Sequence record: NC_019423.1
Source: Escherichia phage IME11
Length of the DNA stretch: 64,000 bases
Reading direction: 5' to 3' (one strand)
Of the stretch, positions 6,817-64,000 are shown piece after piece. Positions within the stretch are counted from its first letter, which is position 1. The number at the start of each line of letters is the position of its first letter. The translations under genes were made by a program, and so were the position numbers. The notes under the pieces are model-generated. The model searched no databases and was not told the DNA's origin. It was given only the letters and a program-made list of their open reading frames with translations.

Positions 6817-6879
6817 TTAACTGGCTTACTGTAGAGTAAGCTTCCTATATACGATATAAGTTTGAACAGGAAACATGCT

Positions 6880-12800: not shown

Positions 12801-15800
12801 TGCTCTGGAATACGACCAGCGTGAGGGTGCTACTGATGACCTGTTACGTATTGGTGCTGAACAGATTGAACGTAATCTGCGTAACATTGCTCTGGGTGTA
12901 GATATTCGCCACAAGGTAATGAACCAGGTACAGACTACTGTTGACCAGATGGCTGCTGTAGGTGCTCCTTATGTGAACAACGGTAAAATTTCTCTGGAAG
13001 GTCTGACTGTAGACCAACAAGTAGCTAAGCTGAACGAACTGTTTGATGTTGAATTAAACAAGCGTCGTGATGCAGTACGTGCTGCTAAAGCAGAACCAGT
13101 GAAAGAAGTACCAGCAATGGAACAGGTTGGTCGTGTACTGAAGTCTGGTGTACGTCTACTGTCTAATACTGCTATTACTAAGTTGGCTAAAGAGATGACT
13201 CCAGAACAGGCTGCTGTACTGAAAGAAGTACAGAACTCCCTTGCTGCTAAAGACTACAAGGTTGTTTATGGCACTCCTTCTCAACTGGATGCCTACGCTA
13301 TTGAGAAGAACATTACTCGCCCAGCACCGGAAGATATTGAAGCTGCTGAAGCTGGTAATGCATACGGCTGGACTAACTTTGATGATAAGACCATCTACTT
13401 AGTTACTCCTTCCTTAGAGACTCTGGTTCATGAATTGGTACATGCTTCTACTTTTGAATCTGTACTGGCTCACTATGAAGGTACTCCTAATGAAGCAGTT
13501 CAGAATATTGAAGACCTGATGAACCAGTTCCGAACTCTGGATGTTAAGGATGAATCCCCGGCAGTACGTGAAGCATATGCTGATGCACTCAATACCATTA
13601 ATGGTCACTTGTCTAATGGCTTTATTGAACCAGCAATGGCTAAAGCTGCTGCACTGAATGAGTACATGGCATGGGGCTTAACCAACCGTGAACTGATTGG
13701 TAAGCAGAAGAAAACCACTGCACTTAAGGCCATGGTTCAGTCTGTGTATGAAGCAATCAAACGTCTGGTATTCGGACGTAAGAAAGCCCCTGCTAACGCA
13801 GATGATATGTTCTCTGGCTTACTGTTTAACTCTTCTGTAGTTATGCGTGGGCAGGCTCCTACTGCTGCTGTAGCCAAGGACACTACTCTGTTCCATAACA
13901 AAGCATATGGTGACAATACTCGTCTGGAAGAGCTAGGGAAGACCTTCGATAAACTGATTACTAACTACATTGGTTCAGAACCAGTACAACAAGTAATTCG
14001 TAAAGGTAAGTTCTCTGATGCAGTAGTGAATGCAACTAAAGTAACCCGTGATGTTCAGGCTCATGGCTTCACTATGAATATGCAGGAACAGCGTCTCTTT
14101 ACTAACATTGTTGCTGCACTGGCTACCGAAGCTGCTATTAGTCCAGCTGCTCTGGCTCGTGCACAAGAATACTATGCACACGTAACCAAGAACCTGACTG
14201 TTGAAGCGTTCATGACTGACCCGGATAGTACTAACCCTGCTGACCGTTACTACGCACAGCAGAAGTTCGATACCATCATGGGTGCTAACAACATTGAGTT
14301 TGATGCACAAGGTCGTTCTTCCTTACTGCCTACCTTTGTGGCACTGGCAATGGTAAGTGAAGATGTACGTAATGTGCTGGCTGACATTCCTGTTATGAAA
14401 GCAGATAAGCAATCCGGTAATACCGTTGATGCAATGCTGACTAATATCGGTACTGCTGCAATGGCTAGTCTGAATGCTCGTGTAGCAGGTGATACTAAAG
14501 CTACCAATGTACAAGAAGGTATGGATGCACTGGCTCAGACCATCATGCAGACCAGTCTTAATGCACAGTCATTCTATGATTCCGTCGCCACTCCTAGTGG
14601 TAATGCTATAGACCGTGCTAACCAGTATCTGGTGGACTCTATTGATGTACTGTCTACCCGTGCTTTAGAAGGTGCTCGTGAAGTTGCAGCTAATACCAAG
14701 AACCCGTTGGTTAAAGGTGCTGCTCATGCTGCACAACTGGTAGCTGCTATTGCTACAGAGAAGAATGGTGCAATCGTAGCTGAAGGTGTTATGGCTGCAA
14801 TGAACCAGGGTAAAGCATGGCAACCTTTCCACGACCTGGTTAATGACTTAACCGGACGTACTAAGAGCAATGCTTCTGTATATGATTTGATTAAAGCAGT
14901 TCGTGCACAGGTACAGGCTGACCGTCAACAGTTCCGTGAACACTTACCTACCACTATCGCATCCAAGTTCAGCCGTAAGCTGACTAATGATGAGTGGAAA
15001 GCAATGCATACCGGTATGGGTAAAACTGACTTGGCTGTCCTGCGTGACACTATGTCTTTGGCTGAAATTCGTGACCTGCTGACTGACCAGAAGATTGTTG
15101 ACCGTGAGGTGAATAAGCTGGAAGCAGATTTACAGAAACAAGCAGGACGTAACTGGCCTTTGATTAGCCGTAAATCTAAGCAACTGGCTCAGTACATGAT
15201 TAACGGTACAGTCGGTAGTAACCTGCTGCGTAATGCTACTGCAATTTCTCGTATGCTGGGTGAACGACAGGCTGCACGTTCTACCGTAGATGTGGCTCAA
15301 CTGGATAAGCTGATTACCTTGTATGCACTGGAAGCAATGAATAAGACTGACCGTGAGATGTTATCTTCACTGGCTCAGACAGAAATTGAAGGTATGGACT
15401 TTGCTACTTCTTATCTGGTTGGGCAGCGTAAAGATGAAATGGCTAAAGCCAAGTCTGATATGCGTGCAACCTTGAACCAGTACAAAGGACATATCCCCAG
15501 TGAAACTAAACAGGGTGTTAACCTGATTGTTGCTGAAGATAGTCAGTTTGCTGATTTGATTGAGAAGTCCTATGTACGTCTGGGTACTTATCAAGGTAGT
15601 TCTGCTAACCGTGGTCCAGCACGTAGCTACTACTTTGCACCAGTACAGGCACAGGCTCCATTCTCACAGGGTATATTACAGAACGTTCGCAATACTGCTG
15701 GTGGTGTGGACCTTGGTACAGGCTTTACGATGGGTTCCATGGTAGCAGGTCGTATCACTGACAAGCCTTCCGTAGACCGTATCACTAAAGCTCTGGCTCG

Positions 15801-17232
15801 TGGTGAACGTGGTAATGAACCACTGCTGCCTGTATATGATGACAAAGGGAATGTGGTTGCTTATGAGCAATCCATTGACCCTAACATGCTGAAGCACATT
15901 GAGGGTGAGAACCATCTTGCTCGTGCAATCGGTGTATGGCGTGGTCGTCAGGTAGAAGAGGCTAAGGCTCAGCGTTTCAACGATATGCTTATTGAGAACC
16001 TACATAGCATGTATGAGAACGACATTAAGATGTCTGCCTCTAATAAGTCCCAGTACGTTAACCTTCTTGGTTCTAAACTGGACCCAGTAACTGCCGATGC
16101 TCTTAAGCTGATGAATAGTGAAACTCGTCAGAAAGCAGAAAGCCTGTTTGGCCCGGGTGAGTTGTGGGTACGTCGTGATATGCTCAACGATGCTCTTGGT
16201 TATCGTGCAGCTTCTGTAGGGGATGCCTGGTCTGGTAATTCTCGTTGGTCCCCAGAAACACTGGATACCTTCAAGAAAGCTATGCTAGGTGTATTTGGCA
16301 ATCGTGCATATAAGTACACAATGGGTGGTGAGAACCTGGTTCAGAACTTAGTTAAAGAAGCTAAGACCCTGATTGTAGTTAAGTCAGTAGTCGTACCTGC
16401 AGTTAACTTCCTAGCTAACCTTTACCAGATGGTTGCTCGTGGTGTACCGGTTAAGAACATTGCTAAGAGCATTCCACAGAAGACTGCTGAGATTAACCAG
16501 TACCTGAAATCTCGTCTACGTCAGGTAGATGCAGAAGCAGAATTACGTGCAGCTACTAACCCGAACCAGATTCGTAAACTTAAGGCTGAGATTCAGTCCA
16601 TCTCTGATAGCCATAAGCGTTTAAGTATCTGGCCTCTGTTAGAAGCTGGTGAGTTCTCTTCAATTGCAGATGCTGGTATCGGACGTGATGACATCCTTAT
16701 TACTGAGGGTAAACTTCACGAATACATGGATAAGCTGGCTGATAAGCTACCTAAGTCTGTACGTAACGCAGGTCGTTATGCACTTATCACTAAGGATACT
16801 GCTCTCTTCCAGGGTATCCAGAAGACGGTTGAGTACTCTGACTTTATCGCTAAAGCAATCATCTATGATGAACTGACTCAGCGTAAAGGTAAGACTCGTG
16901 AGGAAGCACTGGGACGTGTAACGGAAGAGTTCATTAACTATGATCGTTTACCTGGTCGCTTCCGTGGGTATATGGAAAGCATTGGCTTAATGTGGTTCTA
17001 CAACTTTAAGATTCGTTCTGCAAAAGTTGCAGTGTCCATGATTCGTAATAACCCAGTACATGCTGCTATGGCTATGTTGGCTCCAACCCCTACCATGTTT
17101 GGTAATGTTGGTTTACCTATTCAGGACAACATCTTCAGCATTGCTGCACAGGGCAATCTCGGTTACTCCTTCGGTTTCGGTCAGGGCTTACGTGCCCATA
17201 ACCTGAACCCTTGGCTCAATCTTACTAACTAA
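6880..17232 (+). CDS. virion-encapsidated giant RNA polymerase (N4 vRNAP-like)
   Basis: ~3450-aa single ORF (track start 6862 is TTG; ATG at 6880 follows AGGAA). T7-like motif A YVEADGVTNGPIN (Asp codon 11446-11448), motif B RGIAKNPLTITIYGSG (~11770-11815), motif C KIFDGMNIG (Asp codon 12622-12624). The two Asp are 392 aa apart, the spacing I recall for N4 vRNAP. Confidence 0.9.
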   Translation: MSTFDRLAGFADSITNAKQVDVSTATSQKQAAQGQSPFQLTPENAYNLQTGRVGNLGTGAFDPGSLQADFTQASPLEIINKYGNEQGLQILNSRANAADVVRQDLSKQRTNSEAFGDTLSGVGLGVANTLGGIAALGTGLVNDNAGASIASGMDWLNEGVHNLQSDALNATRKVVQNQNQISAQENQKLYEEDIKNGESSLVASLSRIGRDAFDSVANTLDNGMAASDGLSEGVGSLFTGGPLIRGVSALGKVMVGGDKAVKGITLAAELGSRPAQVALSAGRVAAPAVAIGGMEAGGAYQQTASEIMKMSHQELASKSPVYRQHIADGLSPDEARRQTASETGITAAGLTAPVAAATGPLVSRFELNPLKVGSLAGAGSNMLRETVEEGIQSGFGQFAQNTAIKENVDASRDTLKGVGEQAGLGALYGFGSAGVAQAPGATVKAAGAAVGPTVRTTLAGASLVGNALAKVASPITNILVQRGEEVAKRNEQASPVSDATVNAAAQEATAQAEQAQATVQEAVDAMDISPEEKAAATQYAADLTQAMKFDPVELEQANPAIREAVSGSTNRVEAIQKMADLVNTAEDPNIQMEAAIQMYDNIMSMDSFINRDPGALANLEQGSPAANIVDQFSGLMANVQNTPKVLRAFRAIHSMIQEQAEAGKLKATEEANQAQANNIAMAADMSPEVLDADSVNMVLKHASEGKITLGNRQRAALQSAAAVLQGAREFDAKAEELGLRPQDIVSKQIKTDESRSNEGQYSALQHAKRIRSAYNSGNFDLASAYLDDFMKFAQHMQNKVGALNEHLISGNADKNKSVHYQALSPSREWVRSRTGLGVNPYDTKSVKFAQQVGLEAKTVADIANALATAYPELNVSHVKVTPLDSRLDKPAAQVVKEFRQGNLDAAQSQQTNEPVNQVDESPAPVQEATTTVQPKTKPVVENKSAPVKDTSSKPEEVTTTESETVDTALTNEDTTQEVAETKTEMETVFPVYNNDKTPSQFLKAFALPEEPKTRTIGSESPLTDVKQALSSAARFEAFTQKENNALTGDVMKRYQDLLGFGETLKSTLSDRLAKFLANKNVGKRFAEGTEANRWVGGKLLNIVEKDGDTFKFNDQLLETAVLAGLQWRLTATQNAAIKDMKDVAAITGVEVSLLPDGILADFENAQTLVEATNSLAQKIESYWGLNRNPNAPLGYTKGIPMAMATEILSSLIEMGEVKESMLDVSEIDPASNKTVGLYTIEKLDDNDAINNFPTAIEEAVLVEPEEKMYFGDDIPSVAQTQLRNPAVKNTPEQQAALKAEQATEFRVHMPMVNFYEALGRDNILELMGAGTLNPELLNVNTAKSLEGKNLSVSMAYDSLFGVINQVQEQENGLDTPIHYGYNMTRVGRMQMLGKNNPQSSKLVREAILPTFSTIDLSNENSQTFSDFQLGLAQALGIKVHNMSREAMSEKLTKALEGNLKPAVDMMVEFDKSGHLPTDAVDILKTSLGGDKSFVALMALMEYARYLNSNDRANFNTPLYVEADGVTNGPINAMVLMTGGKFTPDWIKNTAKGGLFFGKAGKTMNEHRSQDDSVDLYEASTNGLQQALGELRSTYRNNVPVMSQMSHLQKLMDLFIKDFNLNEDGTLDLKRGIAKNPLTITIYGSGARGIAGKMVSAITDTIYERFSDVLQARAADPSISPAMAMFGKEAASEADAQAMLDTFLTSMEALTGNVPVMRKGELSIQQAEGALTGKLDPQKFTVSGNALKNLQENMLHLFVEPMRTGIRNTVGEGLMHSTENLQKATQIQSLVLQDMFQQAVQAKLAEKEKDPTWKKGDFLTQKELNEIQESLSPLAPMIETGSQTFYIAGSENTDVANQVLATNLDDRMRVPMSIYAPSQAGVAGIPFMTIGTGDGMMMQTLSTMKGAPKNTLKIFDGMNIGINDITDASRKANEAVYTSWQGNPIKNVYDSFAKFMKNVDFSKLSDETKQAIAKSALEYDQREGATDDLLRIGAEQIERNLRNIALGVDIRHKVMNQVQTTVDQMAAVGAPYVNNGKISLEGLTVDQQVAKLNELFDVELNKRRDAVRAAKAEPVKEVPAMEQVGRVLKSGVRLLSNTAITKLAKEMTPEQAAVLKEVQNSLAAKDYKVVYGTPSQLDAYAIEKNITRPAPEDIEAAEAGNAYGWTNFDDKTIYLVTPSLETLVHELVHASTFESVLAHYEGTPNEAVQNIEDLMNQFRTLDVKDESPAVREAYADALNTINGHLSNGFIEPAMAKAAALNEYMAWGLTNRELIGKQKKTTALKAMVQSVYEAIKRLVFGRKKAPANADDMFSGLLFNSSVVMRGQAPTAAVAKDTTLFHNKAYGDNTRLEELGKTFDKLITNYIGSEPVQQVIRKGKFSDAVVNATKVTRDVQAHGFTMNMQEQRLFTNIVAALATEAAISPAALARAQEYYAHVTKNLTVEAFMTDPDSTNPADRYYAQQKFDTIMGANNIEFDAQGRSSLLPTFVALAMVSEDVRNVLADIPVMKADKQSGNTVDAMLTNIGTAAMASLNARVAGDTKATNVQEGMDALAQTIMQTSLNAQSFYDSVATPSGNAIDRANQYLVDSIDVLSTRALEGAREVAANTKNPLVKGAAHAAQLVAAIATEKNGAIVAEGVMAAMNQGKAWQPFHDLVNDLTGRTKSNASVYDLIKAVRAQVQADRQQFREHLPTTIASKFSRKLTNDEWKAMHTGMGKTDLAVLRDTMSLAEIRDLLTDQKIVDREVNKLEADLQKQAGRNWPLISRKSKQLAQYMINGTVGSNLLRNATAISRMLGERQAARSTVDVAQLDKLITLYALEAMNKTDREMLSSLAQTEIEGMDFATSYLVGQRKDEMAKAKSDMRATLNQYKGHIPSETKQGVNLIVAEDSQFADLIEKSYVRLGTYQGSSANRGPARSYYFAPVQAQAPFSQGILQNVRNTAGGVDLGTGFTMGSMVAGRITDKPSVDRITKALARGERGNEPLLPVYDDKGNVVAYEQSIDPNMLKHIEGENHLARAIGVWRGRQVEEAKAQRFNDMLIENLHSMYENDIKMSASNKSQYVNLLGSKLDPVTADALKLMNSETRQKAESLFGPGELWVRRDMLNDALGYRAASVGDAWSGNSRWSPETLDTFKKAMLGVFGNRAYKYTMGGENLVQNLVKEAKTLIVVKSVVVPAVNFLANLYQMVARGVPVKNIAKSIPQKTAEINQYLKSRLRQVDAEAELRAATNPNQIRKLKAEIQSISDSHKRLSIWPLLEAGEFSSIADAGIGRDDILITEGKLHEYMDKLADKLPKSVRNAGRYALITKDTALFQGIQKTVEYSDFIAKAIIYDELTQRKGKTREEALGRVTEEFINYDRLPGRFRGYMESIGLMWFYNFKIRSAKVAVSMIRNNPVHAAMAMLAPTPTMFGNVGLPIQDNIFSIAAQGNLGYSFGFGQGLRAHNLNPWLNLTN

Positions 17233-18598: not shown

Positions 18599-19020
18599 TA
18601 GATTTTACAACCCCCACCTTCACACTCATTATTTTCCAGGAAGCCCTTCAGCATTTCTTGGCTCTGAGCTTGCTCATGCAGATTCTGCTTAAGCAGGTAA
18701 CCTTCCAGTAACCAGACCTTATCGATTGCATTTTCATAGGCAATCTTACGCCCAATTTCTTCGTTGAAGTTTCCCGGGGATGCACAGGCAGACTCACCAG
18801 TAACAGTGAAGCCATTCTCCAGAACCAGTACACAGAAAGTCAGCAGAGATAGTGACTGTACTTCCTGGTTCTTAATGGTTGCTAAGTCTGGTAGTACAGA
18901 TGCTGCACCATCCAGGCCAGTAAAGAAGTAAGTACCAAGTACTTTACTCTTGATGTGGTCAGGGGTAATGCGTGGAGCTTTATCAGCACCAGCTTCTTTA
19001 ATCTGTTGTTCGAGTTCCAT
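18598..19020 (-). CDS. N4 gp49-like protein (Phage_gp49_66 family)
   Basis: ATG at 19020 with GAGGA RBS (track start 19047); segment TFCVLVLENGFTVTGESACASPGNFNEEIGRKIAYENAIDKVWLLEGYLL resembles the gp49/Sf6 gene 66 family. Confidence 0.5.
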   Translation of the reverse strand: MELEQQIKEAGADKAPRITPDHIKSKVLGTYFFTGLDGAASVLPDLATIKNQEVQSLSLLTFCVLVLENGFTVTGESACASPGNFNEEIGRKIAYENAIDKVWLLEGYLLKQNLHEQAQSQEMLKGFLENNECEGGGCKI

Positions 19021-54964: not shown

Positions 54965-55268
54965 GCTTCAGTACCTGTTTAAGAAGACTATCCATGTAAT
55001 AGCAGTATGCCTCGGAGTTATCATCGTTGATTGGTAATCCAATGAACCCGAAGGTGTATATACAGAAGTGATTAAGTTCATGAACCAAGGTGATAGGGTC
55101 ACTATCTTGTGCATAGATAAGTACCGAACCATCAGATAGCAGTGTAGTTACACCTTTGCTTTGTTCCTCTGGTTCACAGCCCTTAGCTTTCTTGTACTTC
55201 TTAATGAAGGTATCCCAGTCGAATACTACCTCTAACTGTACCGGATAGGGGGATGTGTTTAGTTTCAT
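54954..55268 (-). CDS. small HExxH-motif protein (putative mini metallopeptidase-like)
   Basis: 104 aa; LVHELNHFCIY contains HExxH; embedded in the paralog array. Confidence 0.45.
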   Translation of the reverse strand: MKLNTSPYPVQLEVVFDWDTFIKKYKKAKGCEPEEQSKGVTTLLSDGSVLIYAQDSDPITLVHELNHFCIYTFGFIGLPINDDNSEAYCYYMDSLLKQVLKHER

Positions 55269-55615
55269 AGAGATACCTTTGGATAAATGGTGCGTACTCT
55301 TTTAAAATCTTTATTAGGTCTACCATCTATAGTAAGCCCAACAAACCCTTCTTCTATCCTTGGTTCAAAGAACAAGAATGCAGATTCACCAGCAGGTATC
55401 TTTATGGATTCCCCTGGATTAAGGATGGTTAAATTAGCAGGGCTGTTGAGTAGAAGGATGGAACCACGAGTACTATCTGCTAACTCACCGGGTAACATAA
55501 GCATATGACAGTCTTGCGGGAGTAACCAATCAATAGCTTTAGTGACATTCTCAGAGTAAACGGATACCTCATCTGTATACTGGTGAAGGAATAATACTCT
55601 ATTCATAAGGTACAC
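55265..55615 (-). CDS. small protein of tandem paralog family (member E)
   Basis: 116 aa; core LPGELADSTRGSILLLNSPANLTILNPGESIKIP. Confidence 0.5.
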   Translation of the reverse strand: MYLMNRVLFLHQYTDEVSVYSENVTKAIDWLLPQDCHMLMLPGELADSTRGSILLLNSPANLTILNPGESIKIPAGESAFLFFEPRIEEGFVGLTIDGRPNKDFKRVRTIYPKVSL

Positions 55616-55923
55616 TCGTCGCTAGATAAATATGAGGTAGAAGGATAGAGGGTAATAAGTCTACCTGTTAGGGTAGTTACTACCATAGGTTCACAGGAGG
55701 AGTAGATGTATACAACTACATTCTCTGGAACTTCAATGGAAGTATCTATTTTAATAAAGGTAATAGGTACACCCAACATGAGGCAGGTTCCGATGAACTC
55801 ATCCGCTTTTTCACATTGTTCGTAGTACATGGTCATAGGTGTGCTTATCCTCAACCAATGGGATTTACCTACCCCCAGATTAAGGGGACTGGTACTACGA
55901 TAACTCAAACCATAGAAGTGCAT
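55603..55923 (-). CDS. small protein, possible divergent member of the paralog family (D)
   Basis: 106 aa; weaker similarity (ADEFIGTCLMLGVPITFIKIDTSIEVP). Confidence 0.4.
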   Translation of the reverse strand: MHFYGLSYRSTSPLNLGVGKSHWLRISTPMTMYYEQCEKADEFIGTCLMLGVPITFIKIDTSIEVPENVVVYIYSSCEPMVVTTLTGRLITLYPSTSYLSSDECTL

Positions 55924-55926
55924 AAC

Positions 55927-56304
55927 TTACTTCCTTACATAGTAGTAACGATAGTCATCATTATCATGACGACTATCCCACTGGTAGTCATGAGATATCA
56001 TCATGAAAGGTAGAGCATCATATGCACAACTAACGGTGTATACTGAGGGAGGAATGATACATACAACCTTACGGTCACAACCAGCTAAGAATAGCTGACC
56101 CCTTACTTCATGATAATCTTCTAAAGTAGGAACCAGTATTACTCGTTGGGGACTGCTGTTCATCACTTCTTCTAAAGTGAAGTCAGTTGTAAACAATAGT
56201 TCCCCTTTAATAAAACTGGGGGCGGTCATTATGAATTTCATGATTGATTCTCCTTCCTTTAGGAATAGGTCTGAAGTAAATGGAAAGTGTTTTATTAAAG
56301 ACAT
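55927..56304 (-). CDS. small protein of tandem paralog family (member C)
   Basis: 125 aa; core VPTLEDYHEVRGQLFLAGCDRKVVCIIPPSVYTV; overlaps member B by 98 nt. Confidence 0.45.
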   Translation of the reverse strand: MSLIKHFPFTSDLFLKEGESIMKFIMTAPSFIKGELLFTTDFTLEEVMNSSPQRVILVPTLEDYHEVRGQLFLAGCDRKVVCIIPPSVYTVSCAYDALPFMMISHDYQWDSRHDNDDYRYYYVRK

Positions 56305-56605
56305 TATGGTCAGCTATCAATTCCCAACCAGGTATCTTATAGAAACGTACACCGGGGAAGATCATACTAAAGTCATTGTAAAACGAAAGATCATACACCT
56401 TTGGTTCAGTAAGTATCTTAGTATTGAGTTGCAGATTGGATAGGAAAAGAGAACCAATAACTTCATGGGACTCTTCGCAGTCAGGTAAGAATACCGTTTG
56501 CCACGGGGTAATGAACTTACTTACTACTTCTGGTTCCCCTAGTAGATAGGGTTCCTGCTTATGAAGTACTCCAGTAATATCAATATCAAAAGCGTAGATG
56601 CTCAT
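56207..56605 (-). CDS. small protein of tandem paralog family (member B)
   Basis: 132 aa; core LPDCEESHEVIGSLFLSNLQLNTKILTEPKVYDL. Confidence 0.45.
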   Translation of the reverse strand: MSIYAFDIDITGVLHKQEPYLLGEPEVVSKFITPWQTVFLPDCEESHEVIGSLFLSNLQLNTKILTEPKVYDLSFYNDFSMIFPGVRFYKIPGWELIADHNVFNKTLSIYFRPIPKGRRINHEIHNDRPQFY

Positions 56606-56620
56606 AGTTGCATACCTCCT

Positions 56621-56657
56621 GAAAAAGAAATGGGGTAGAGCCTCTCGACTCTACCCC
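56621..56657 (-). terminator. putative rho-independent terminator
   Basis: 9-bp stem GGGGTAGAG/CTCTACCCC with 8-nt loop, preceded on plus by GAAAAAGAAA (T-run on minus). Confidence 0.45.
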
Positions 56658-56805
56658 TTACCGTTTTCTATCACGGGTCAGTTCATCACCCTAGATACAT
56701 GTGTATCGTTAGCCTACTAGGTAGGAAAGGAGCCGGGTAACCCTGACTGTAGAAGTTATTAACTCTTTACGAGTACCGCCACTGTCTACTAGGCGGTATG
56801 ACTAA

Positions 56806-57096
56806 TCACATCGTCACCGTCATCCGAACGCTGTCTTTGCTTCGTTTGATGGAGACACTATGAGGTAATTTTGTGAAGAACACAAGAGCTGAAAAGCGTT
56901 TTTCTAAAGAGTAAGTTTCTCTTGGTTCTAGGATTTTAATGCCAGGACGATTCTCTAACAGCATCATCCCAGCTAATTCATGATAGGTGTCTTCATCATG
57001 CGTAATGATAATATCACCTGAAAGGAAGCCAGTCTTAGTGTGGTCTAGCTCCTTGTATTCATCTTTAGAGTCCTGGACTCTCATATAGATTCTCAA
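56806..57096 (-). CDS. small protein of tandem paralog family (member A)
   Basis: 96 aa; core YHELAGMMLLENRPGIKILEPRETYSL; first minus-strand gene next to the divergent junction with terminase. Confidence 0.5.
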   Translation of the reverse strand: MRIYMRVQDSKDEYKELDHTKTGFLSGDIIITHDEDTYHELAGMMLLENRPGIKILEPRETYSLEKRFSALVFFTKLPHSVSIKRSKDSVRMTVTM

Positions 57097-57267
57097 AGGT
57101 TACTCCTTTAGGGAATAAGGTCATCGGAACATTACATACTATTTAGTATCATGAACTTTTTCTATATCATGACTAAAGTGTAACTGTATGGTATGGTTTC
57201 TTCAAGGGGTATCTCACCCCAAGAAAAGAATCTTCGTTAATAGACATAACTTTGTAGAGAGATAAGT

Positions 57268-57957
57268 ATGAGTGAGTTAACCAGACAGCAAATTATTAAT
57301 GCACTACCTGCTAACTTCAAAAATAGTGTAAGCCAGGAATTGGTAGACACGATTAACAACATTACCCAAGACCAGCTGGTTGCTGAGGCATTCCGTGAAA
57401 ACTTCATCTCTTACTCTGGTGTAATGAAGGAGGGTAAGTTCAAGACACAGGACTACATGAATGCAGTTCAGTATGTGACTTACAAACATATGGGCTATTC
57501 CAATAAGGAAGCCTACTTCAAAACATTCCCTAACCGACAAGCAGAACTTGTAGCACGGGGAACCAGTGAGAAAGATATTAGTGCTTATGTATCTGCTTAC
57601 CACAGGGGTAAGCTAGTTAACCTCATCATGGAACAAAGTTTGGTTCCAGTGTGGATTGTGAACCAAGACAATTATCAGAAGGCAATCAATGTTCAGGTTG
57701 AACTGATGACTACAGCAGCAAGTGAGAAGGTAAGATGTGATGCAGCTAACTCTATCCTTACCCACTTAGCTAAACCAAAAGACCAGGTAACTAACATCAA
57801 TCTGGACTTGAGAGAGAACTCCGGGTTGACCGACCTCAAAGCAACACTTGCTGCATTAGCTGAACAGCAAATCAATGCAATCAATAGTGGTGTACCTACT
57901 AAAGAGATTGCTGGTTCTAAACTAGTACGTGCAGATGAGGACATTACAGATGTCTGA
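57268..57957 (+). CDS. putative terminase small subunit (by position)
   Basis: 229-aa ORF immediately upstream of and overlapping the terminase large subunit; assignment is by synteny. Confidence 0.4.
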   Translation: MSELTRQQIINALPANFKNSVSQELVDTINNITQDQLVAEAFRENFISYSGVMKEGKFKTQDYMNAVQYVTYKHMGYSNKEAYFKTFPNRQAELVARGTSEKDISAYVSAYHRGKLVNLIMEQSLVPVWIVNQDNYQKAINVQVELMTTAASEKVRCDAANSILTHLAKPKDQVTNINLDLRENSGLTDLKATLAALAEQQINAINSGVPTKEIAGSKLVRADEDITDV

Positions 57958-59539
57958 GTTAATTAAACAGGAACTGGATGAATGGCTAGACCAGGTGGAT
58001 TATTCCCACCTTAACTCTTCTAACTATGTTCCCAGTCAGTTTGCTCTTACCTTTGCCAACTTTATTAAGTTGGTTAATGGTAAGGAAGGTGAATCCAACA
58101 AAACACCACCAGTTCACTTGAAGATGTTGGATAAGATGATTAGCCCGAACCAGTATGTAGTTAACCTGTGCTTCCGTGGTGCAGGTAAGACTGCTGTGTT
58201 CATGGAATACTTTACATTGTTCTTGGCAGTGTTTGGACACTTACCAAGTCTGGGAAAAGTAGAAGGAATGATTTACGTATCCGACTCAATGGATAACGGT
58301 GCTAAGTCTGCACGTAAGAATATTGAGTTCCGGTATAAGAATAGTGAGTTCCTTCAGCAGTGGATACCTGAAGCTACCTTTACGGATAACCTGTTAGAGT
58401 TCCGTAATGCAGAAGGGCATCGACTGGGTGTTAAGTTGTTTGGTGCTAAGACAGGTCTTCGTGGTACGAAGATATATGGTAAACGTCCAACACTCTGTGT
58501 ACTGGATGACTTGATTAGTGATGGTGATGCTAACTCTAAGACTAGCATGGAAGCTATTAAAGATACCGTCTATAAAGGTGTGAACCATGCTCTTGACCCA
58601 ACCCGTCGTAAAGTAATCTTCAACGGTACTCCCTTTAATAAGGAAGACATTATCATTGAGGCTGTTGAGTCTGGTGCATGGGATGTAAACGTATGGCCTG
58701 TATGTGAGAAGTTCCCTTGCAGTGAAGAAGAATTTCAGGGTGCATGGGATGACCGTTTCTCTTACGACTACATCAAAGCCCAATACGATATGGCAGTTAA
58801 GACCGGTAAGCTGGCAGGCTTCTATCAGGAACTTATGCTCCGTATCAGTTCTGAGGATGAGAGACTGGTTCAGGATAGTGAAATTAAATGGTACAGCAGG
58901 CAGCAGCTATTAAGGATGAAATCCTGCTACAACTATTACATTACAACTGACTTTGCTACTTCGGAGAAACAGACCAGTGACTACAGTGTCATATCAGTTT
59001 GGGCTTATAGTTCTAATGGAGATTGGTTCTGGGTTGATGGTGTGGCTAATCGCCAGCTTATGGATAAAAACTTTGATGACCTGTTCCGTCTGGTTCAGGA
59101 ATACCAACCACAAAACGTTGGTGTCGAAATTACAGGACAACAGAATGGATTCATCTCACTCCTTCAGAAAGAAATGATTAACCGTAACGTCTTCTTTAAC
59201 TTTGCTACCTCTGAGGGTGGTAAGCCAGGCATCCGTCCTGTAACCTCTAAGCTGTCACGCTTTAACCTGGTAGTTCCATGGTTCAAGGCTGGTAAGATGT
59301 ATTTCCCGGAAGAGTTGAGAGATACAACTATTATGGGGCTGTTCATGGGCCAGATTAAACTAGCTACCATTAATGGAATCAAAGGTAAGGATGACTGTAT
59401 TGATACTATTTCCATGCTGGGTTATCTCAATCCTTGGAAACCACAAGCAGGTATGACTATGGTGGATAGTAAGGGTGACCCAATGTGGGATGAGGAAGAA
59501 GAAGATAGTGTTAACCCACTACGTTCATATATTGTATGA
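57950..59539 (+). CDS. terminase large subunit
   Basis: ATG at 57950 with GAGGA RBS (track start 57929 is GTG); Walker A CFRGAGKT, Walker B LCVLDD, C-terminal nuclease-like acidic motifs (ITTDFATS, DDCIDT). Confidence 0.8.
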   Translation: MSELIKQELDEWLDQVDYSHLNSSNYVPSQFALTFANFIKLVNGKEGESNKTPPVHLKMLDKMISPNQYVVNLCFRGAGKTAVFMEYFTLFLAVFGHLPSLGKVEGMIYVSDSMDNGAKSARKNIEFRYKNSEFLQQWIPEATFTDNLLEFRNAEGHRLGVKLFGAKTGLRGTKIYGKRPTLCVLDDLISDGDANSKTSMEAIKDTVYKGVNHALDPTRRKVIFNGTPFNKEDIIIEAVESGAWDVNVWPVCEKFPCSEEEFQGAWDDRFSYDYIKAQYDMAVKTGKLAGFYQELMLRISSEDERLVQDSEIKWYSRQQLLRMKSCYNYYITTDFATSEKQTSDYSVISVWAYSSNGDWFWVDGVANRQLMDKNFDDLFRLVQEYQPQNVGVEITGQQNGFISLLQKEMINRNVFFNFATSEGGKPGIRPVTSKLSRFNLVVPWFKAGKMYFPEELRDTTIMGLFMGQIKLATINGIKGKDDCIDTISMLGYLNPWKPQAGMTMVDSKGDPMWDEEEEDSVNPLRSYIV

Positions 59540-59545
59540 GGAATT

Positions 59546-60253
59546 ATGATTAAACTAACCGAGCTGTATAAGAGTCTGGCTCTAAGTGTTCTGAATAACA
59601 CCAGTGTTGTTACTGATGATAAGAAGGACATTGAGACAGATAAGAAAGAATACATCCTCGAATTTATTAATGAGGGGCTTACCCGTTTACACGGCAGGTT
59701 CCCACTTAAAACTGAGAATATATTCGTAGAAATGAGGGAGGGTAGAACAGAGTACCCATTGCTCAAGCGATACTCTTTTATGGGGTTTGACCCTGAGCTA
59801 GCCCAGTACCCTTTCATAATGGATTCAGTAACTAACCCATTTGAGGAGAATGTGATAAAGATACTGATGGTGTATGACTCTTGGGGGGAACGTCGAGGAC
59901 TTAACGACAGCCACAATCCACATGGGTTATTCACCCCAAGACCAGACACGTTACAGTGTATTCGTCCTCGTCATTGTGAAGTACTTACGGTAACATATCA
60001 GGCGAAGCATCCAACTCTTACTGTAGAAGGTGAGAACCAGGAAGTAGACCTGCCTGATTCCTTACTGCCTGCATTAAAGTACTGGGTAGCATATAGCTAT
60101 TACACTGGCCTCAACACTGCTGAAAGTACAAGTAAGGCAGCAGAGTATTTGCAAATGTACGAGTCAATCTGTGGAGAGGTTAAGGACTATGACCTTGGTA
60201 GCAGCAGTGAGTCAAACACCAATACATTATTTGAAAGAAGAGGGTGGATATGA
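59546..60253 (+). CDS. hypothetical structural-module protein
   Basis: 235-aa ORF with AGGAA RBS between terminase and tail fibre. Confidence 0.5.
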   Translation: MIKLTELYKSLALSVLNNTSVVTDDKKDIETDKKEYILEFINEGLTRLHGRFPLKTENIFVEMREGRTEYPLLKRYSFMGFDPELAQYPFIMDSVTNPFEENVIKILMVYDSWGERRGLNDSHNPHGLFTPRPDTLQCIRPRHCEVLTVTYQAKHPTLTVEGENQEVDLPDSLLPALKYWVAYSYYTGLNTAESTSKAAEYLQMYESICGEVKDYDLGSSSESNTNTLFERRGWI

Positions 60254-62940
60254 ATTCTCATAATCCGTTTAACACAGGTGGTAGTGGGTGCACTAATGAT
60301 TTTCGTTCTGCTGACCAGTTAGTAGACCGAATTATTGGTGACGCCTACCATGTAGTAAAAGAGGTATACCTTGCATTAGGTAACCTTACCTACATCTATA
60401 ACTACCTACAGAAGTACGGCCTAATTATTACTGTAGACAGTGAAGATGCAATCAAGGATATCCCCTTATCAATTGGTAAGTTTGCACGTGTCTACAACAA
60501 ATCAGAAACGGCTGGGTACTACTTCACTGACTACCTGTATGTAGCAGATGATACTACAGGCATCCCATCGAATGACCCAACTGCAACTGGTTCATGGGTA
60601 AGTACGAAAGCTACCGGCTCTAATGCATCTTTCGTGCGTATCTGGAAGTATCGGGCTGAGGCCGATGGCGTTACTTCGATAGAGCTACCCACGGATATTC
60701 CAATTGTTGGAGTGCAGACCATTTACGTGGAGGGTGTAAGACAGGACATCAATGAAGGCTTCTCCTACAATGAGGGCACAGCTACAATCACATTAGCTGA
60801 CTCTCTAGAAGCTGGTAATCTGGTTACCGTTATTATAGGTATAACTGACCCAGATTTGGATGTGGATGTTTTCGCCATACTCAAGAACAGCGATGGGGCT
60901 TCCAACATTGGAACCAGCGATGGTAGTACTGTTCAACAAGAATTAGACACTGCACTAAAGAGCTTCATTAGTTTGGAAAAAGGTGGGGTTCTTACCAAAC
61001 GTAACCAATTAGTCTATGACGGAGAGTCGTTTTATAATTGGAGAGGGGACTTACCTAAGACTATCCCAGCAGGTAGCACTATTAGTAGCTTGGGGGGAGT
61101 TGGTAAGAAAACCTGGGGCGTCATCTCAATGACTGAAGCTTCTCAGTTGCTCTGGAAGCGTAATAAATTAATCACTGCAATTACCGGTGTAGGTGGGTTG
61201 TTGGACTCCCAATGGGTAAGTATTTGGGAGTTCGCCAATGAAATTGTAGACATGCCCACCAGCAATCCCCAAACTTGGGACTGGACACCAGCATTTGTAG
61301 CAGCCCGTGACTACATCGAGTCTTATGTGCAGCAGGTTGCAGTTAACTCTACCATGTGGGGAACCAAGACACTCTTCGTGCCTTCTGGTATTTACTTGCT
61401 TAAAGAAGAGGTACTGTTTACTCAGTACGCTAACAGCAGAGGCTCACTCTCTACAGGGTATCGTATCGTCGGTGACGGTATGACATCCACCGTCATTCAG
61501 CCTGTAACGGACGGACAAACTGCCTTCAGAGCTACTAACTGTAAGTTCAATCTACAGGATATTGGTTTCCGTGCTGGGGCTAAGTACAACAAGGGTGTGG
61601 TGATGGGTTCCACTGATAAGTGGGAACCAGTTTTCCACTCTAACTGGGACCGTGTTGGATTCTCTGGTTTTGCTCGTGGTGTTGTAGGCAACCTGGTATT
61701 TGACAGTACTTTTATTGACGTCTTTGTTCAAGAAATTACAGAGATGCAGGACATTAGCGAGTACTCTGCTGGGGTAGACTTCCCTGCCTATATGGGTCCA
61801 GCTAACAATAGCAAGGATGCTGTAAACACAGGGGACTGCTCCAACAATATTACGTTTATTCGTCTTACTGTAGAAACTGCTAAGACTAACAACGCAATCA
61901 TGATTAACTTACGAGGCAGGAACAACTCGTATGCTAACCATGCATTTAACTTCTTTGCTGGTCACGTAGAGACACACAACCGTTACGCTAAAACTCTGTC
62001 AGTACAGAACAGTATTAACATTAACGCATTTGGTGTGATTTTTAGCCAGAACGGTGATGAGGATACGCCTCCTACTCGTGTAATGTATTTCAACAACGCT
62101 TCAGACATTTGCCTGCAAGCTTGTCGTATCATTACTAATAACGTGGTTGCTGCCTATGCAGATACTGATACTAAGATGATTGCAGTAGAGGGCAACTCTG
62201 GTAACGTATCGTTCCCTCACACTTACGTAAGGACCCCTTACTACAACCTCAATACGTACAATGCTGGTATAGCGTATTGTATTGATAGCTCTAATGCTAC
62301 CCGTGGTGTGCGTTCTTATGACGATACTGGTGTCATCATTAACCAGTACTCCAACAAGAAGGTTGCCAGCAGACGTAGACTGACCAGCATGAATAGTATT
62401 GGCCTCTCCTTTGAAGAAAGGGTAGAGGCAGATGGTTCTTTAGTATGGGCTTACAGTACATCACGTGATGATACAACAGTTCCTACTGACAGAATGTCTC
62501 TTACTTCGGCTGGTGCACTGCAAACCACAGGTAACCTACAGATTGGTGCAATGTCTTCTTCTGGGGTCACCCGTGGAATTGACTTTATCAACAACGGTGA
62601 CAAGAGTACCATCACTGCACGTATTCAGGCAGATAATGTAGGGCGACTGTACTTTGGTTCCTATGGCTTAACCCAAAACTGGGTAATGGGTAGTAATACA
62701 TTTAACCCAACTACTGATAACACCCATAGCATGGGTACAGCAGCAAATAGAATCAATGCAGTTTACGCTGTAGTATTCCGCTTCTCTGCAACAGTAGGTA
62801 TCTTTTCTGGTTCTGGTAGCCCAGAAGGCATAGTAACTGCTGGAGCCGGTTCTATGTACTTAAGGACAGATGGTGGTGCTAATGCATCAATGTATGTTAA
62901 AGAAACCGGTTCAGGTAACGTAGGGTGGGTAGCCAAATGA
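60250..62940 (+). CDS. tail fibre / tailspike protein
   Basis: ~897 aa (track start 60244 is GTG); beta-rich Ser/Thr/Asn/Gly composition; C-terminal GSPEGIVTAGAGSMYLRTDGGANASMYVKETGSGNVGWVAK resembles conserved podophage tail-fibre C-termini. Confidence 0.55.
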   Translation: MNSHNPFNTGGSGCTNDFRSADQLVDRIIGDAYHVVKEVYLALGNLTYIYNYLQKYGLIITVDSEDAIKDIPLSIGKFARVYNKSETAGYYFTDYLYVADDTTGIPSNDPTATGSWVSTKATGSNASFVRIWKYRAEADGVTSIELPTDIPIVGVQTIYVEGVRQDINEGFSYNEGTATITLADSLEAGNLVTVIIGITDPDLDVDVFAILKNSDGASNIGTSDGSTVQQELDTALKSFISLEKGGVLTKRNQLVYDGESFYNWRGDLPKTIPAGSTISSLGGVGKKTWGVISMTEASQLLWKRNKLITAITGVGGLLDSQWVSIWEFANEIVDMPTSNPQTWDWTPAFVAARDYIESYVQQVAVNSTMWGTKTLFVPSGIYLLKEEVLFTQYANSRGSLSTGYRIVGDGMTSTVIQPVTDGQTAFRATNCKFNLQDIGFRAGAKYNKGVVMGSTDKWEPVFHSNWDRVGFSGFARGVVGNLVFDSTFIDVFVQEITEMQDISEYSAGVDFPAYMGPANNSKDAVNTGDCSNNITFIRLTVETAKTNNAIMINLRGRNNSYANHAFNFFAGHVETHNRYAKTLSVQNSININAFGVIFSQNGDEDTPPTRVMYFNNASDICLQACRIITNNVVAAYADTDTKMIAVEGNSGNVSFPHTYVRTPYYNLNTYNAGIAYCIDSSNATRGVRSYDDTGVIINQYSNKKVASRRRLTSMNSIGLSFEERVEADGSLVWAYSTSRDDTTVPTDRMSLTSAGALQTTGNLQIGAMSSSGVTRGIDFINNGDKSTITARIQADNVGRLYFGSYGLTQNWVMGSNTFNPTTDNTHSMGTAANRINAVYAVVFRFSATVGIFSGSGSPEGIVTAGAGSMYLRTDGGANASMYVKETGSGNVGWVAK

Positions 62941-63134
62941 GTAAGCAAACTGTTATCAGAGATGCAGCGGGTAATGTGATTAACATCGGTCCTTGGGATT
63001 TTGTTAAAACTGTAGAGACTGATTTAAGCACAGGTGAAGACTATCTGGTCATAAATAATCCTATGCCAGATGGTTGTTATGAGAGTACTGCTGAGATTAC
63101 AACTCTACCTGATGGTGGATTATCAGCTGAGTAG
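62937..63134 (+). CDS. hypothetical small protein
   Basis: 65-aa ORF; ATG overlaps the tail-fibre stop (ATGA). Confidence 0.35.
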   Translation: MSKQTVIRDAAGNVINIGPWDFVKTVETDLSTGEDYLVINNPMPDGCYESTAEITTLPDGGLSAE

Positions 63135-63190
63135 TAACTAAGGCTAGGGGGGTGTTAGCCCCCTTAAAACTACAACATGAGGAATGACCC

Positions 63191-64000
63191 ATGAATAAGG
63201 TGTTTACCCAACCCACAGGCCCAGTGGCTAAACAGGTTAATAAGCAAACTATAGCCCGATTGCTGGGTATAAAGACAGCACAAGTAGGTTATATAAATAG
63301 GCTCTCCCCTATTGATTCATATACTGTACTTTTTGATGAGTCCTCTCAGTTGCCCTTTTACAGAGGCTCAGCATTAGGTACTCCAACCTCATGGGCTTAT
63401 AACGCGGCCCTAGACGTGTTGGACATAACAACCACATCTGGGACTTATTCCCTGGTTCTAGCTAATAAAGTTAAAGAGCTAGAGAACAATCTAAAATCAG
63501 AAGATACAGGCAAAGGGGCTGATACTGTTAAAGTACGTAAAGGTAGAGCAAGCATTACTCCTGCTCGTACTGTGGCAGAGTTGTTATTAGATGGTATGGC
63601 TGGATTGCGTAAAAATTTCGGGGCAATTGGTAATGGTATTGCTGATGATACCAATGCTATCAATGATATGTGGGAATGCATGTATGATGCATCCTACAAA
63701 AGATTTGGAGCACTCACTGATGAAGCAGCTATCAGTTTTATGCTTCAAAAAGGCCCAGCTTGTTTAGTTGAAAATGGGGTGTATGTTTACTCTGGCCCCG
63801 GTTTAACTTTTCCAAGTGGTGCTGCATTTGTAATGAATATCCATGGTGAAAGTGCTCTTTCGTCTAAGTTCCTTATTACTTCAGATGCTTATCTTTTTGA
63901 TTTGGATAATAACCCAGTACATAGTTATTTAGGTAAATTAACTATTCATGGGGGGCGAGGGGCTGTACGAATGAAATCCGATGCCCGAACTACGGCGGGT
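63191..64000 (+). CDS. tailspike / depolymerase with pectate-lyase-like beta-helix N-terminal motif (3'-truncated by window end)
   Basis: ATG with GAGGAA RBS; open frame to window end (270 codons, absent from ORF track); motif GAIGNGIADDTNAINDMW resembles the G-D-G-x-T-D-D-T signature of Pectate_lyase_3-type tailspikes. Confidence 0.55.
   Translation, partial: MNKVFTQPTGPVAKQVNKQTIARLLGIKTAQVGYINRLSPIDSYTVLFDESSQLPFYRGSALGTPTSWAYNAALDVLDITTTSGTYSLVLANKVKELENNLKSEDTGKGADTVKVRKGRASITPARTVAELLLDGMAGLRKNFGAIGNGIADDTNAINDMWECMYDASYKRFGALTDEAAISFMLQKGPACLVENGVYVYSGPGLTFPSGAAFVMNIHGESALSSKFLITSDAYLFDLDNNPVHSYLGKLTIHGGRGAVRMKSDARTTAG

Follow-up and report, generated by a model that had tools for sequence, protein, structure and literature searches.

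Two putative glycan-specific tailspikes of the G7C anchor-and-branch type in the N4-like Escherichia phage IME11

The closest described counterpart of the locus analysed here is the branched gp66/gp63.1 complex of phage G7C (Prokhorov et al. 2017, as cited in PMC6872550), in which gp63.1 is an O-antigen deacetylase, that is, an esterase; the docking model used below is likewise that of Prokhorov 2017, in the form in which PMC6872550 relays it. The myovirus CBA120 (Kuttervirus) carries four spikes with other catalytic specificities, and its branched complex, in which docking proceeds through T4gp10-like domains, follows the same logic (PMC6872550). For the Shigella phages Moo19 and B2, cryo-EM maps show homologous 234-aa adaptors that hold the N-termini of the tailspikes, of which residues 10-74 were modelled within the tail assembly, adaptor included, while in B2 the anchor and the spike are split into two complex-forming proteins, gp49 and gp48, that were co-purified (PMC11654681). 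Finally, S2-3 (BAW85697.1) of the jumbo myovirus K64-1 is a verified K35 depolymerase (Pan et al. 2017, as reported in PMC11652154).

The window, by which I mean the whole stretch of 64,000 nucleotides from Escherichia phage IME11 (NC_019423.1), represents an N4-like genome, with a vRNAP open reading frame of 3456 aa at 6862-17232 and a backbone that is 90-92% identical in DNA to the gamaleyaviruses. In its late operon the order TerS, TerL, adaptor, RBP1 and RBP2 equals gp69-gp68-gp67-gp66-gp63.1 of G7C, and the same order is observed in phages 24-32N and BaqKoxi. All features described here lie on the plus strand. The 235-aa tail adaptor (59546-60253; Pfam SU10_adaptor, E 6.8e-11) is 62% identical to G7C gp67 in a pairwise comparison, and its stop shares an ATGA overlap with the start of ORF1, the RBP1 gene directly downstream. 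An earlier, sequence-only reading of this DNA had proposed two receptor-binding proteins in tandem, which agrees with the homologies of the two genes to RBP1 and RBP2 of the G7C type, and the anchor-and-branch architecture, which that reading had not recognised, explains why the two genes stand close together. I consider it very probable that the region is the host-recognition module of a Gamaleyavirus-type N4-like podophage, built on the G7C plan and furnishing two glycan-specific spikes.

The longest frame of ORF1 runs from a GTG at 60244 to 62940 (898 aa), but the ATG at 60250, as in the sequence-only reading, is the likely start, resulting in a protein of 896 aa (60250-62940); the Shine-Dalgarno sequence GAGGGTGG precedes this ATG, and homologues also start at MNSHNPF. 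Residues 1-200 (60250-60849) comprise the particle-binding anchor and a first beta domain of the gp66, Moo19 gp82 and B2 gp49 type. Among PDB sequences, aa 1-197 match 9d80_D (E 7e-37) and 9d83_D (E 5e-36), from the set of entries for Moo19 gp82 and B2 gp49/gp48 (9d80-9d84), and with BLASTP aa 1-195 are just 36.5% identical to aa 1-203 of G7C gp66 (E 8e-31), whereas in 24-32N and BaqKoxi the same region is 86-100% identical. A Tail_spike_N domain of the TSP1/Gp66 type follows at 60979-61122 (PF18668, E 1.4e-09; its 38.4 bits exceed the cutoff of 25); it aligns with aa 402-452 of gp66 in BLASTP, and a Foldseek search with the ORF1 model matches residues 1-335 of CBA120 TSP4. This domain is a candidate docking region for the product of ORF2. 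ORF1 would most likely form a trimer, fixed to the tail by its anchor (aa ~1-200) via the gp67-like adaptor, and would offer a side docking site in the Tail_spike_N / T4gp10-like region at aa ~130-293.

The C-terminal two thirds of ORF1 would constitute a beta-helix tailspike akin to Klebsiella capsule depolymerases, and are unlike the distal part of G7C gp66. AF2, Foldseek and sequence homology all predict a right-handed, depolymerase-like beta-helix at aa ~320-700 (61207-62349), where pLDDT is mostly 85-97 in a model that is moderate overall (70.6) and poor in the anchor (aa 1-127) and at aa 814-849. Foldseek matches of the helix include GVE2 ORF18, CBA120 TSP3/1/4, Depo32, phiAB6 and the RbmB lyase. 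At the sequence level, aa 303-840 (aa 13-550 of the query) are 45.5% identical to the K64-1 S2-3 'lyase' over 538 aa (E 7e-156), an alignment that spans the catalytic body, i.e. the beta-helix and the domain after it; both proteins belong to phrog_27613, and as judged by alignment S2-3 is the nearest characterised relative of the ORF1 tailspike. The K35 specificity is not transferable to ORF1, as an identity of 45% is too low for that. S2-3 carries a TSP1-type N-terminus where ORF1 has the gp66 anchor, and it lacks a recognisably similar C-terminal module, as the alignment stops before the last ~56 aa of ORF1.

ORF2, the second receptor-binding gene, opens with the ATG at 63191 and continues stop-free for 270 codons to the window edge at 64000, as had been noted from the letters alone. 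Contig L004, which is 96.4% identical in DNA to window positions 55246-64000, encodes at 10255-12555 a protein identical to this fragment in 269 of 270 residues, and the full length of ORF2 is likely 767 aa; the fragment is also 89% identical to Gp75 of phage 24-32N and 87% to its counterpart in BaqKoxi. Its first 102 residues (63191-63496), which include the conserved peptide MNKVFTQPTGPVAKQVNKQTIAR, form an N-terminal docking domain of the gp63.1 / CBA120 TSP1 type: aa 1-64 are 31% identical to aa 1-65 of gp63.1 (BLASTP, E 3.6e-7), phrog_22037 matches the domain with an E of 1.6e-20, and the 24-32N homologue matches 4oj5 (CBA120 TSP1) over aa 1-76 with a full-sequence E of 1.5e-4. Past aa 65, similarity to gp63.1 was not found. 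By this domain of ~100 aa ORF2 would dock on ORF1.

The fold of ORF2 was read from a homologue sharing 82% identity with the part of ORF2 inside the window, and this presumes that the window continues like contig L004. This proxy is modelled with pLDDT 80-93 over aa 20-90 and combines a right-handed parallel beta-helix with a beta-sandwich, including a predicted C-terminal CBM-like domain; the first rungs, at aa ~190-270 (63758-64000), lie within the window and the rest outside it. A gp63.1-type esterase (O-antigen deacetylase) was rejected on account of this fold and of the missing likeness beyond aa 65. The sequence-only reading had correctly picked out GNGIADDT at aa 147-154 (63629-63652), a beta-helix N-terminal cap motif that conforms to G[DN]GxxDDT and is kept as GDGxxDDT in the consensus of the family. 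Translation of the whole window in six frames contains it only once, and relaxing the pattern to G.G..DD[TS] adds no second match. Its counterpart in the 24-32N homologue aligns with 'AVGDGIADDT' of CBA120 TSP1, and the proxy model places it on a strand (148-152) that is followed by a helix (154-163). However, the motif alone fails to place ORF2 in PF12708 of the pectate-lyase-like PF12708 / PF13229 clan (proxy, positions 5-29 aligned, E 0.92; 9.7 bits, where 27 are required; not significant), and neither ORF1 nor the ORF2 fragment yielded a Pfam beta-helix or pectate-lyase match above threshold. The models of ORF1 and of the ORF2 proxy both match structures of CBA120 TSP1-4, although beyond the N-terminal domains this likeness is at the level of the fold only (10-15% identity). 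A characterised homologue of the receptor-binding domain of ORF2 was not found, and D293, nearly invariant in the family alignment, is the only lead to a catalytic residue.

The receptor-binding part of ORF1, together with a 65-aa open reading frame behind it, matches a Phapecoctavirus contig (L006) at 98.8% DNA identity, which indicates a recent exchange of the two as a cassette. DNA similarity breakpoints place the left recombination junction in the SDGASNIGT linker (ORF1 aa 213-224, 60886-60921): similarity to the backbone relatives ends at 60906-60915, and similarity to L006 begins at 60920. The linker motif is kept in relatives, with next to no variation in its columns of alignment A2. 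The right junction falls at ~63258, inside the peptide MNKVFTQPTGPVAKQVNKQTIAR of ORF2, with the matches to four contigs (L005, L006, L008 and L009) all stopping at 63255-63258.

ORF1 ends in a C-terminal module (aa 840-896, 62767-62937; ...GSGSPEG...YLRTDGG...YVKETGSGNVGWVAK) that corresponds to the tail end of phrog_16355 and is modelled with low confidence by AF2. The last 74 aa match 236 phage records across many hosts (tblastn), and nine tail proteins of unrelated phages share the ending ...GSPEG...Y.R.DG...YVKE.G.GNTGWVAK. The conserved C-terminus of the sequence-only reading is thus real, but its description as podophage-type is too narrow, as the module also occurs in the siphoviruses KOX1 and Loki and in the myoviruses FKP14, RSP15 and the Phapecoctavirus contig. 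That reading also had the order of the two large genes right, while overlooking the acidic 65-aa ORF between them (62937-63134), which overlaps the ORF1 stop by ATGA and belongs to an uncharacterised family. G7C has no such gene between its two. The layout recurs in pKP-BM327-1.1 (Schitoviridae, Efbeekayvirus), with a trio of 894, 66 and 674 aa and an ATGA-coupled small ORF; its first protein is 59% identical to ORF1 over aa 142-896 (65.5% in the comparison that yielded S2-3) and its small ORF 50%, while the genus, the anchor region and the second receptor-binding protein differ, and all its proteins are uncharacterised. In K64-1, a match to the small ORF was not found. The spacer before ORF2 contains a 9-bp G/C stem-loop (63145-63166) with no T-run 3' of it; the RNA fold of these 61 nt (-16.7 kcal/mol, z-score -0.83) is not significant. 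In the G7C annotation, gp63.1 is flanked by 16-bp GC palindromes.

The sequence-only reading took ORF1 for a plain tail fibre. A non-enzymatic, T7-style fibre, with ORF2 as the only depolymerase, would fit the occurrence of the small terminal module on fibres as well and the absence of the GDGxxDDT cap motif from ORF1. However, the gp66-type anchor, the Tail_spike_N domain and the confidently predicted beta-helix, the structural matches to tailspikes and depolymerases, the strong homology to K64-1 S2-3, RaK2 and many Klebsiella tailspikes, and the 1250 bits with phrog_27613 ('tail protein') largely refute it, and I give it hardly any credence. Somewhat less improbable, though still unlikely, is that one or both beta-helix proteins are mere adhesins that bind a glycan or protein receptor without depolymerase activity. 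Against this speak the 45.5% identity that ORF1 shows along its entire helix with an enzyme proven to depolymerise the K35 capsule, the structural neighbours of both models, which are mostly active tailspikes, lyases or hydrolases, and the CBM-like domain of the ORF2 proxy, which is typical of glycan-processing spikes.

For the 65-aa ORF the alternatives are less far apart. Its family matches phrog_33685 (E 8.8e-42, function unknown) and counts 71 clusters in a library of 1.8 billion proteins, but Pfam, NCBIfam and the PDB gave zero matches, the chaperone families Caudo_TAP and Phage_tail_APC included, and it is found in 17 phage records against 236 for the C-terminal module, which can therefore exist without a recognisable copy of the small ORF. 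These observations would suit a small moron, an anti-defence gene or a spurious hitch-hiker in the cassette, unconnected to tailspike assembly, which I consider a possible but doubtful explanation. The ORF is kept as a protein (40-55% identity among 67 relatives, with G18, W20, N41, P42 and P44 invariant) and is identical across six independent contigs; in all cases examined, from at least four phage families, the tail gene before it has a stop that overlaps its start or lies very close to it. Homologues lie directly 3' of the C-terminal module in nine of nine loci, every protein preceding one bears that module, and in the exchanged cassette the ORF moves together with the receptor-binding domain of ORF1. 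The idea of a chaperone is built on this position and on a single fusion, to Pfam Phage_tail_APC, a tail-assembly-chaperone domain, among the 67 relatives. I regard the ORF as a candidate partner of the C-terminal module in assembly. Its translation is coupled to that of ORF1, and its product most likely would help this module to fold or trimerise, or would bind to it.

The module as a whole combines known parts anew and is not a new kind of system. With G7C it has in common the anchor, the Tail_spike_N domain and the docking domain of RBP2, a backbone of the same genus type, and an identical succession of genes after the terminase and the gp67 adaptor, whereas the esterases of G7C gp63.1 and of the distal domains of Moo19 and B2 contrast with the beta-helices predicted for ORF1 and ORF2. 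Within the genus the same anchor carries many different heads, and that ORF2 bears a head other than the esterase of gp63.1 is normal variation. The ORF1 spike and the docked ORF2, which would direct a second, unrelated beta-helix and a CBM-like beta-sandwich against a second surface glycan, lead me to propose two glycan-specific spikes per virion. Targeting of capsule or O-antigen, as the sequence-only reading suggested, is plausible, and the two spikes may work in sequence, on the capsule and then on a second layer, or may broaden the host range.

The receptor-binding region of the late operon combines known modules in a new way within the already described G7C-type architecture, and its only less-charted elements are a 65-aa ORF and the C-terminal module that it accompanies. 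A sequence-only reading had proposed two receptor-binding proteins in tandem, the second with a depolymerase-like motif, and had taken them to suggest capsule or O-antigen targeting; its coordinates and motif are correct, and its interpretation is only partly supported. An ORF of 3456 aa (6862-17232), the size of a virion RNA polymerase, identifies the window as most of an N4-like (Schitoviridae) genome, and positions 35001-60000 show 90-92% DNA identity to phages of the Gamaleyavirus type, including Klebsiella phage vB_Kpl_K57alpha1.2, Shigella phage pSb-1 and several Escherichia phages. The region lies at the start of the late operon on the plus strand, where a TerS-like gene (57268-57957), TerL (57929-59539) and a 235-aa protein with a match to Pfam SU10_adaptor (59546-60253) are followed by ORF1 (the first receptor-binding protein), the small 65-aa ORF and ORF2 (the second receptor-binding protein). 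The same order is found in G7C (gp69-gp68-gp67-gp66-gp63.1) and in phages 24-32N and BaqKoxi. Because the late structural genes wrap round its ends, the window lacks the portal, capsid and lysis genes as well as the remainder of ORF2. Stop and start codons overlap as ATGA at 60250-60253 (adaptor to ORF1) and at 62937-62940 (ORF1 to the small ORF), and these two overlaps suggest coupled translation of adaptor, spike and small protein.

The reading frame of ORF1 is open from a GTG at 60244 to the stop at 62938-62940. Judged from the sequence, the true start is almost certainly the ATG at 60250, as it overlaps the upstream stop, is preceded by the ribosome-binding site GAGGGTGG and is where the homologues begin; the span of 60250-62940 originally given for this tail fibre thus agrees with both the open frame and the start evidence. 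By homology, aa 1 to ~200 form a particle-binding anchor, which matches the 'tail fiber protein' of Moo19 (PDB chain 9d80_D, E 7e-37), Gp49 of B2 (9d83_D, E 5e-36) and aa 1-203 of G7C gp66 (36.5% identity, E 8e-31), and is 86-100% identical to the corresponding region of 24-32N and BaqKoxi. In the cryo-EM structures of Moo19 and B2, the model of the tail assembly includes N-terminal residues 10-74 of the spike along with 234-aa adaptors, and gp49 and gp48 of B2 were co-purified as a complex (PMC11654681). Downstream of the anchor, aa 244-291 pass the curated cutoff for Pfam Tail_spike_N of the TSP1/Gp66 type (E 1.4e-9), and this region also matches aa 402-452 of G7C gp66, whose T4gp10-like region is the docking site of gp63.1 (Prokhorov et al. 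2017, as summarised in PMC6872550).

Searches of Pfam, NCBIfam and PDB sequences assigned no beta-helix or pectate-lyase family to ORF1 or ORF2. In the AlphaFold2 model of ORF1, aa ~320-700 form a right-handed beta-helix (pLDDT 70.6 overall, mostly 85-97 within this part), and Foldseek matches for the model include GVE2 ORF18, CBA120 TSP3/1/4, the K2 depolymerase Depo32, the phiAB6 tailspike and the RbmB lyase. Among sequence relatives of the head, the distal receptor-binding part, S2-3 of K64-1 is annotated as 'lyase' (aa 303-840, 45.5% identity, E 7e-156) and listed as a K35-specific depolymerase (PMC11652154); RaK2 shows 45.7% identity, and an uncharacterised protein of Klebsiella phage pKP-BM327-1.1 shows 65.5% over aa 292-896. 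Exact-sequence look-ups of ORF1 with either possible start gave no match, and a scan of GTDB genome contigs found no prophage copy of its head, hence no host clue.

ORF2 starts at an ATG at 63191 behind a GAGGAA site and is open for 270 codons to the window end. The motif GNGIADDT occupies its aa 147-154 (63629-63652) and is the sole match to the loose pattern G.G..DD[TS] in a six-frame translation of the whole window, so that the motif and the running off the edge were correctly noted. An exact-sequence look-up with the small ORF led to L004, a 72-kb Logan assembly contig collinear with the window, with unbroken 96.4% DNA identity to 55246-64000; its 767-aa protein begins with a sequence identical to the ORF2 fragment at 269 of 270 positions. 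The fragment is further 89% identical to Gp75 of 24-32N and 87% to a BaqKoxi protein, and its aa 1-64 resemble G7C gp63.1 (31% identity, E 3.6e-7). The 24-32N homologue aligns with CBA120 TSP1 (4oj5) at aa 1-76, and its motif region aligns with 'AVGDGIADDT' of TSP1. No Pfam family exceeded the threshold, the motif giving PF12708 at E 0.92. A direct BLASTP comparison of ORF1 with ORF2 detected no internal homology; both match positions 5-88 of phrog_27613, a relationship visible at the profile level only.

The fold of ORF2 was modelled through a proxy, the 767-aa cluster representative P0003, which shares 82% identity with the window fragment and 91% with the L004 protein; the alignment comprised 55 sequences. 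In this confident model (pLDDT 85.1), an N-terminal domain (aa ~18-102) and a flexible linker precede a cap, where the motif makes up a strand (148-152) and a helix (154-163) follows; next come a long series of short strands (aa ~190-545) and a C-terminal beta-sandwich (aa ~570-767). Foldseek results are consistent with this fold, and the C-terminal domain also matches CBM4 and CBM16 modules. The downstream sequence is thus predicted, by this proxy, to contain the beta-helix that the motif had suggested. The library of protein relatives returned only two partial matches for the 270-aa fragment, which reflects the sensitivity limit of the word index, because the full-length proxy gave 69. Head homologues with 52-60% identity occur in Raoultella phage RP180, Escherichia phages TH49 and TH50, a Vectrevirus and Klebsiella phages, as well as on many Klebsiella, Raoultella and E. 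coli chromosomes, where they presumably sit in prophages. A literature search for this head family (RP180, TH49 and similar) turned up no functional work.

The spacer 5' of ORF2 contains a 9-bp G/C stem-loop without a T-run (63145-63166), which is no more stable than shuffled sequences, and no promoter- or terminator-like signal rose above chance. In the G7C record, identical 16-bp GC palindromes (CCCCGCCGAAGCGGGG) are annotated on either side of gp63.1, at 16219-16234 and 18845-18860. Flanking hairpins may thus recur at the second spike gene.

DNA similarity to the backbone relatives ends at 60906-60915, within the conserved linker SDGASNIGT of ORF1. From there, window positions 60920-63258 are 98.8% identical to positions 7984-10321 of L006, a contig of a Phapecoctavirus (an rV5-like myovirus). 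The shared segment extends from aa 224 of ORF1 across the small ORF and the spacer to codon 22 of ORF2. The matches of L006 and of three other contigs (L005, L008 and L009) all stop at 63255-63258, within the N-terminal peptide MNKxFTQPTGPVAKQxNKQxIAR that is common to all second receptor-binding proteins examined. On DNA identity, the L006 match indicates a recent exchange of the cassette between a podovirus and a myovirus, which is the familiar modular swapping of receptor-binding heads, caught here at a recent stage. In public assemblies, the ~235-aa anchor of the ORF1 type is joined to at least seven Pfam-annotated heads (Beta_helix, Pect-lyase, GH28, SASA esterase, BNR sialidase, Peptidase_S74 and PF27114; proteins P0077-P0125). 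The gene after the small ORF in L006 (10254-10559) is a 101-aa ORF with only an N-terminal docking domain of the TSP1/gp63.1 type; this could represent either what is left of a truncated spike or a cap for the docking site.

The small ORF (62937-63134, plus strand), which had been overlooked, starts with an ATG that overlaps the ORF1 stop (GCC AAA TGA / ATG AGT). Its acidic product belongs to phrog_33685 (E 8.8e-42), annotated as function unknown, and a library of 1.8 billion proteins clustered at 50% contains 71 relatives, with G18, W20, N41, P42 and P44 invariant in the alignment; Pfam, NCBIfam and PDB contained no relative. The long repetitive matches P0128, P0130, P0149 and P0187, repeat proteins of the Ig-like, HYR, Cna-B or FG-GAP type, were judged to be composition artefacts. 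At all nine loci inspected (Schitoviridae of two genera, a Webervirus, a ~39-kb phage, a 143-kb myovirus and a Phapecoctavirus), the homologue lies directly 3' of a tail protein ending in ...GSPEG...GNTGWVAK. In ORF1 this ending is part of a terminal module of ~57 residues (...GSGSPEG...YLRTDGG...YVKETGSGNVGWVAK), found in 236 phage records with hosts such as Klebsiella, Acinetobacter, Ralstonia, Achromobacter and Vibrio. The C-terminus is therefore conserved, as had been noted, but 'podophage-type' is too narrow a name, since sipho- and myoviruses carry the module as well as podoviruses. Homologues of the ORF1 head align to its last residues in every phage with a small-ORF match, whereas in K64-1 and RaK2, which have no such match, the alignment stops at query aa 550, which corresponds to ORF1 aa 840. 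The converse does not hold, as a small ORF is detectable in only 17 phage records compared with the 236 that have the module. In one distant relative, P0140, repeats resembling the small ORF are fused to a Pfam Phage_tail_APC chaperone domain.

The linkage at nine loci, the co-occurrence with the module and the P0140 fusion favour, with modest confidence, an assembly or partner role of the small protein for the C-terminal module. A more speculative reading, which I consider rather doubtful, is that the two might constitute an undescribed, highly mobile two-part unit, in which the phrog_33685 protein would serve specifically in folding or trimerisation, or else be bound at the tip as an accessory subunit, and would travel with tailspike heads among podo-, sipho- and myoviruses of Enterobacteriaceae.

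What is directly shown comprises gene order, homology, the predicted folds and the exchange of the cassette; from here on I infer a mechanism. ORF1 trimers would attach to adaptor and tail through the anchor, and ORF2 trimers would dock by their N-terminal domain onto ORF1 at its Tail_spike_N / T4gp10-like region. The two beta-helices would bind, and probably cleave, different surface polysaccharides. The target of ORF1 is probably a Klebsiella-type capsule, for which K35 is only the closest specificity characterised so far. Hosts of the backbone relatives are E. coli, Shigella and Klebsiella; the ORF1 head has relatives in Klebsiella phages, and the ORF2 head occurs in phages of E. coli and Klebsiella.

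The current understanding of phage adsorption is unchanged by these results. The receptor-binding module decides which bacteria this phage can attack, and recognising two beta-helix spikes, one related to a K35 depolymerase, aids host-range prediction and the choice of anti-capsule depolymerase candidates. The near-identical Phapecoctavirus cassette illustrates cleanly how receptor-binding domains have recently been exchanged between podovirus and myovirus, its junctions in two short conserved linkers are useful for the design of chimeric spikes, and proteins P0077-P0125 already make up a catalogue of the head swaps in this group of phages. The 65-aa gene that travels along is a candidate, cheap to test, for a factor that such spikes need in order to be expressed in active form. 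If the two-part unit exists, it would add a new class to the assembly partners of tailspikes and matter for recombinant depolymerase production.
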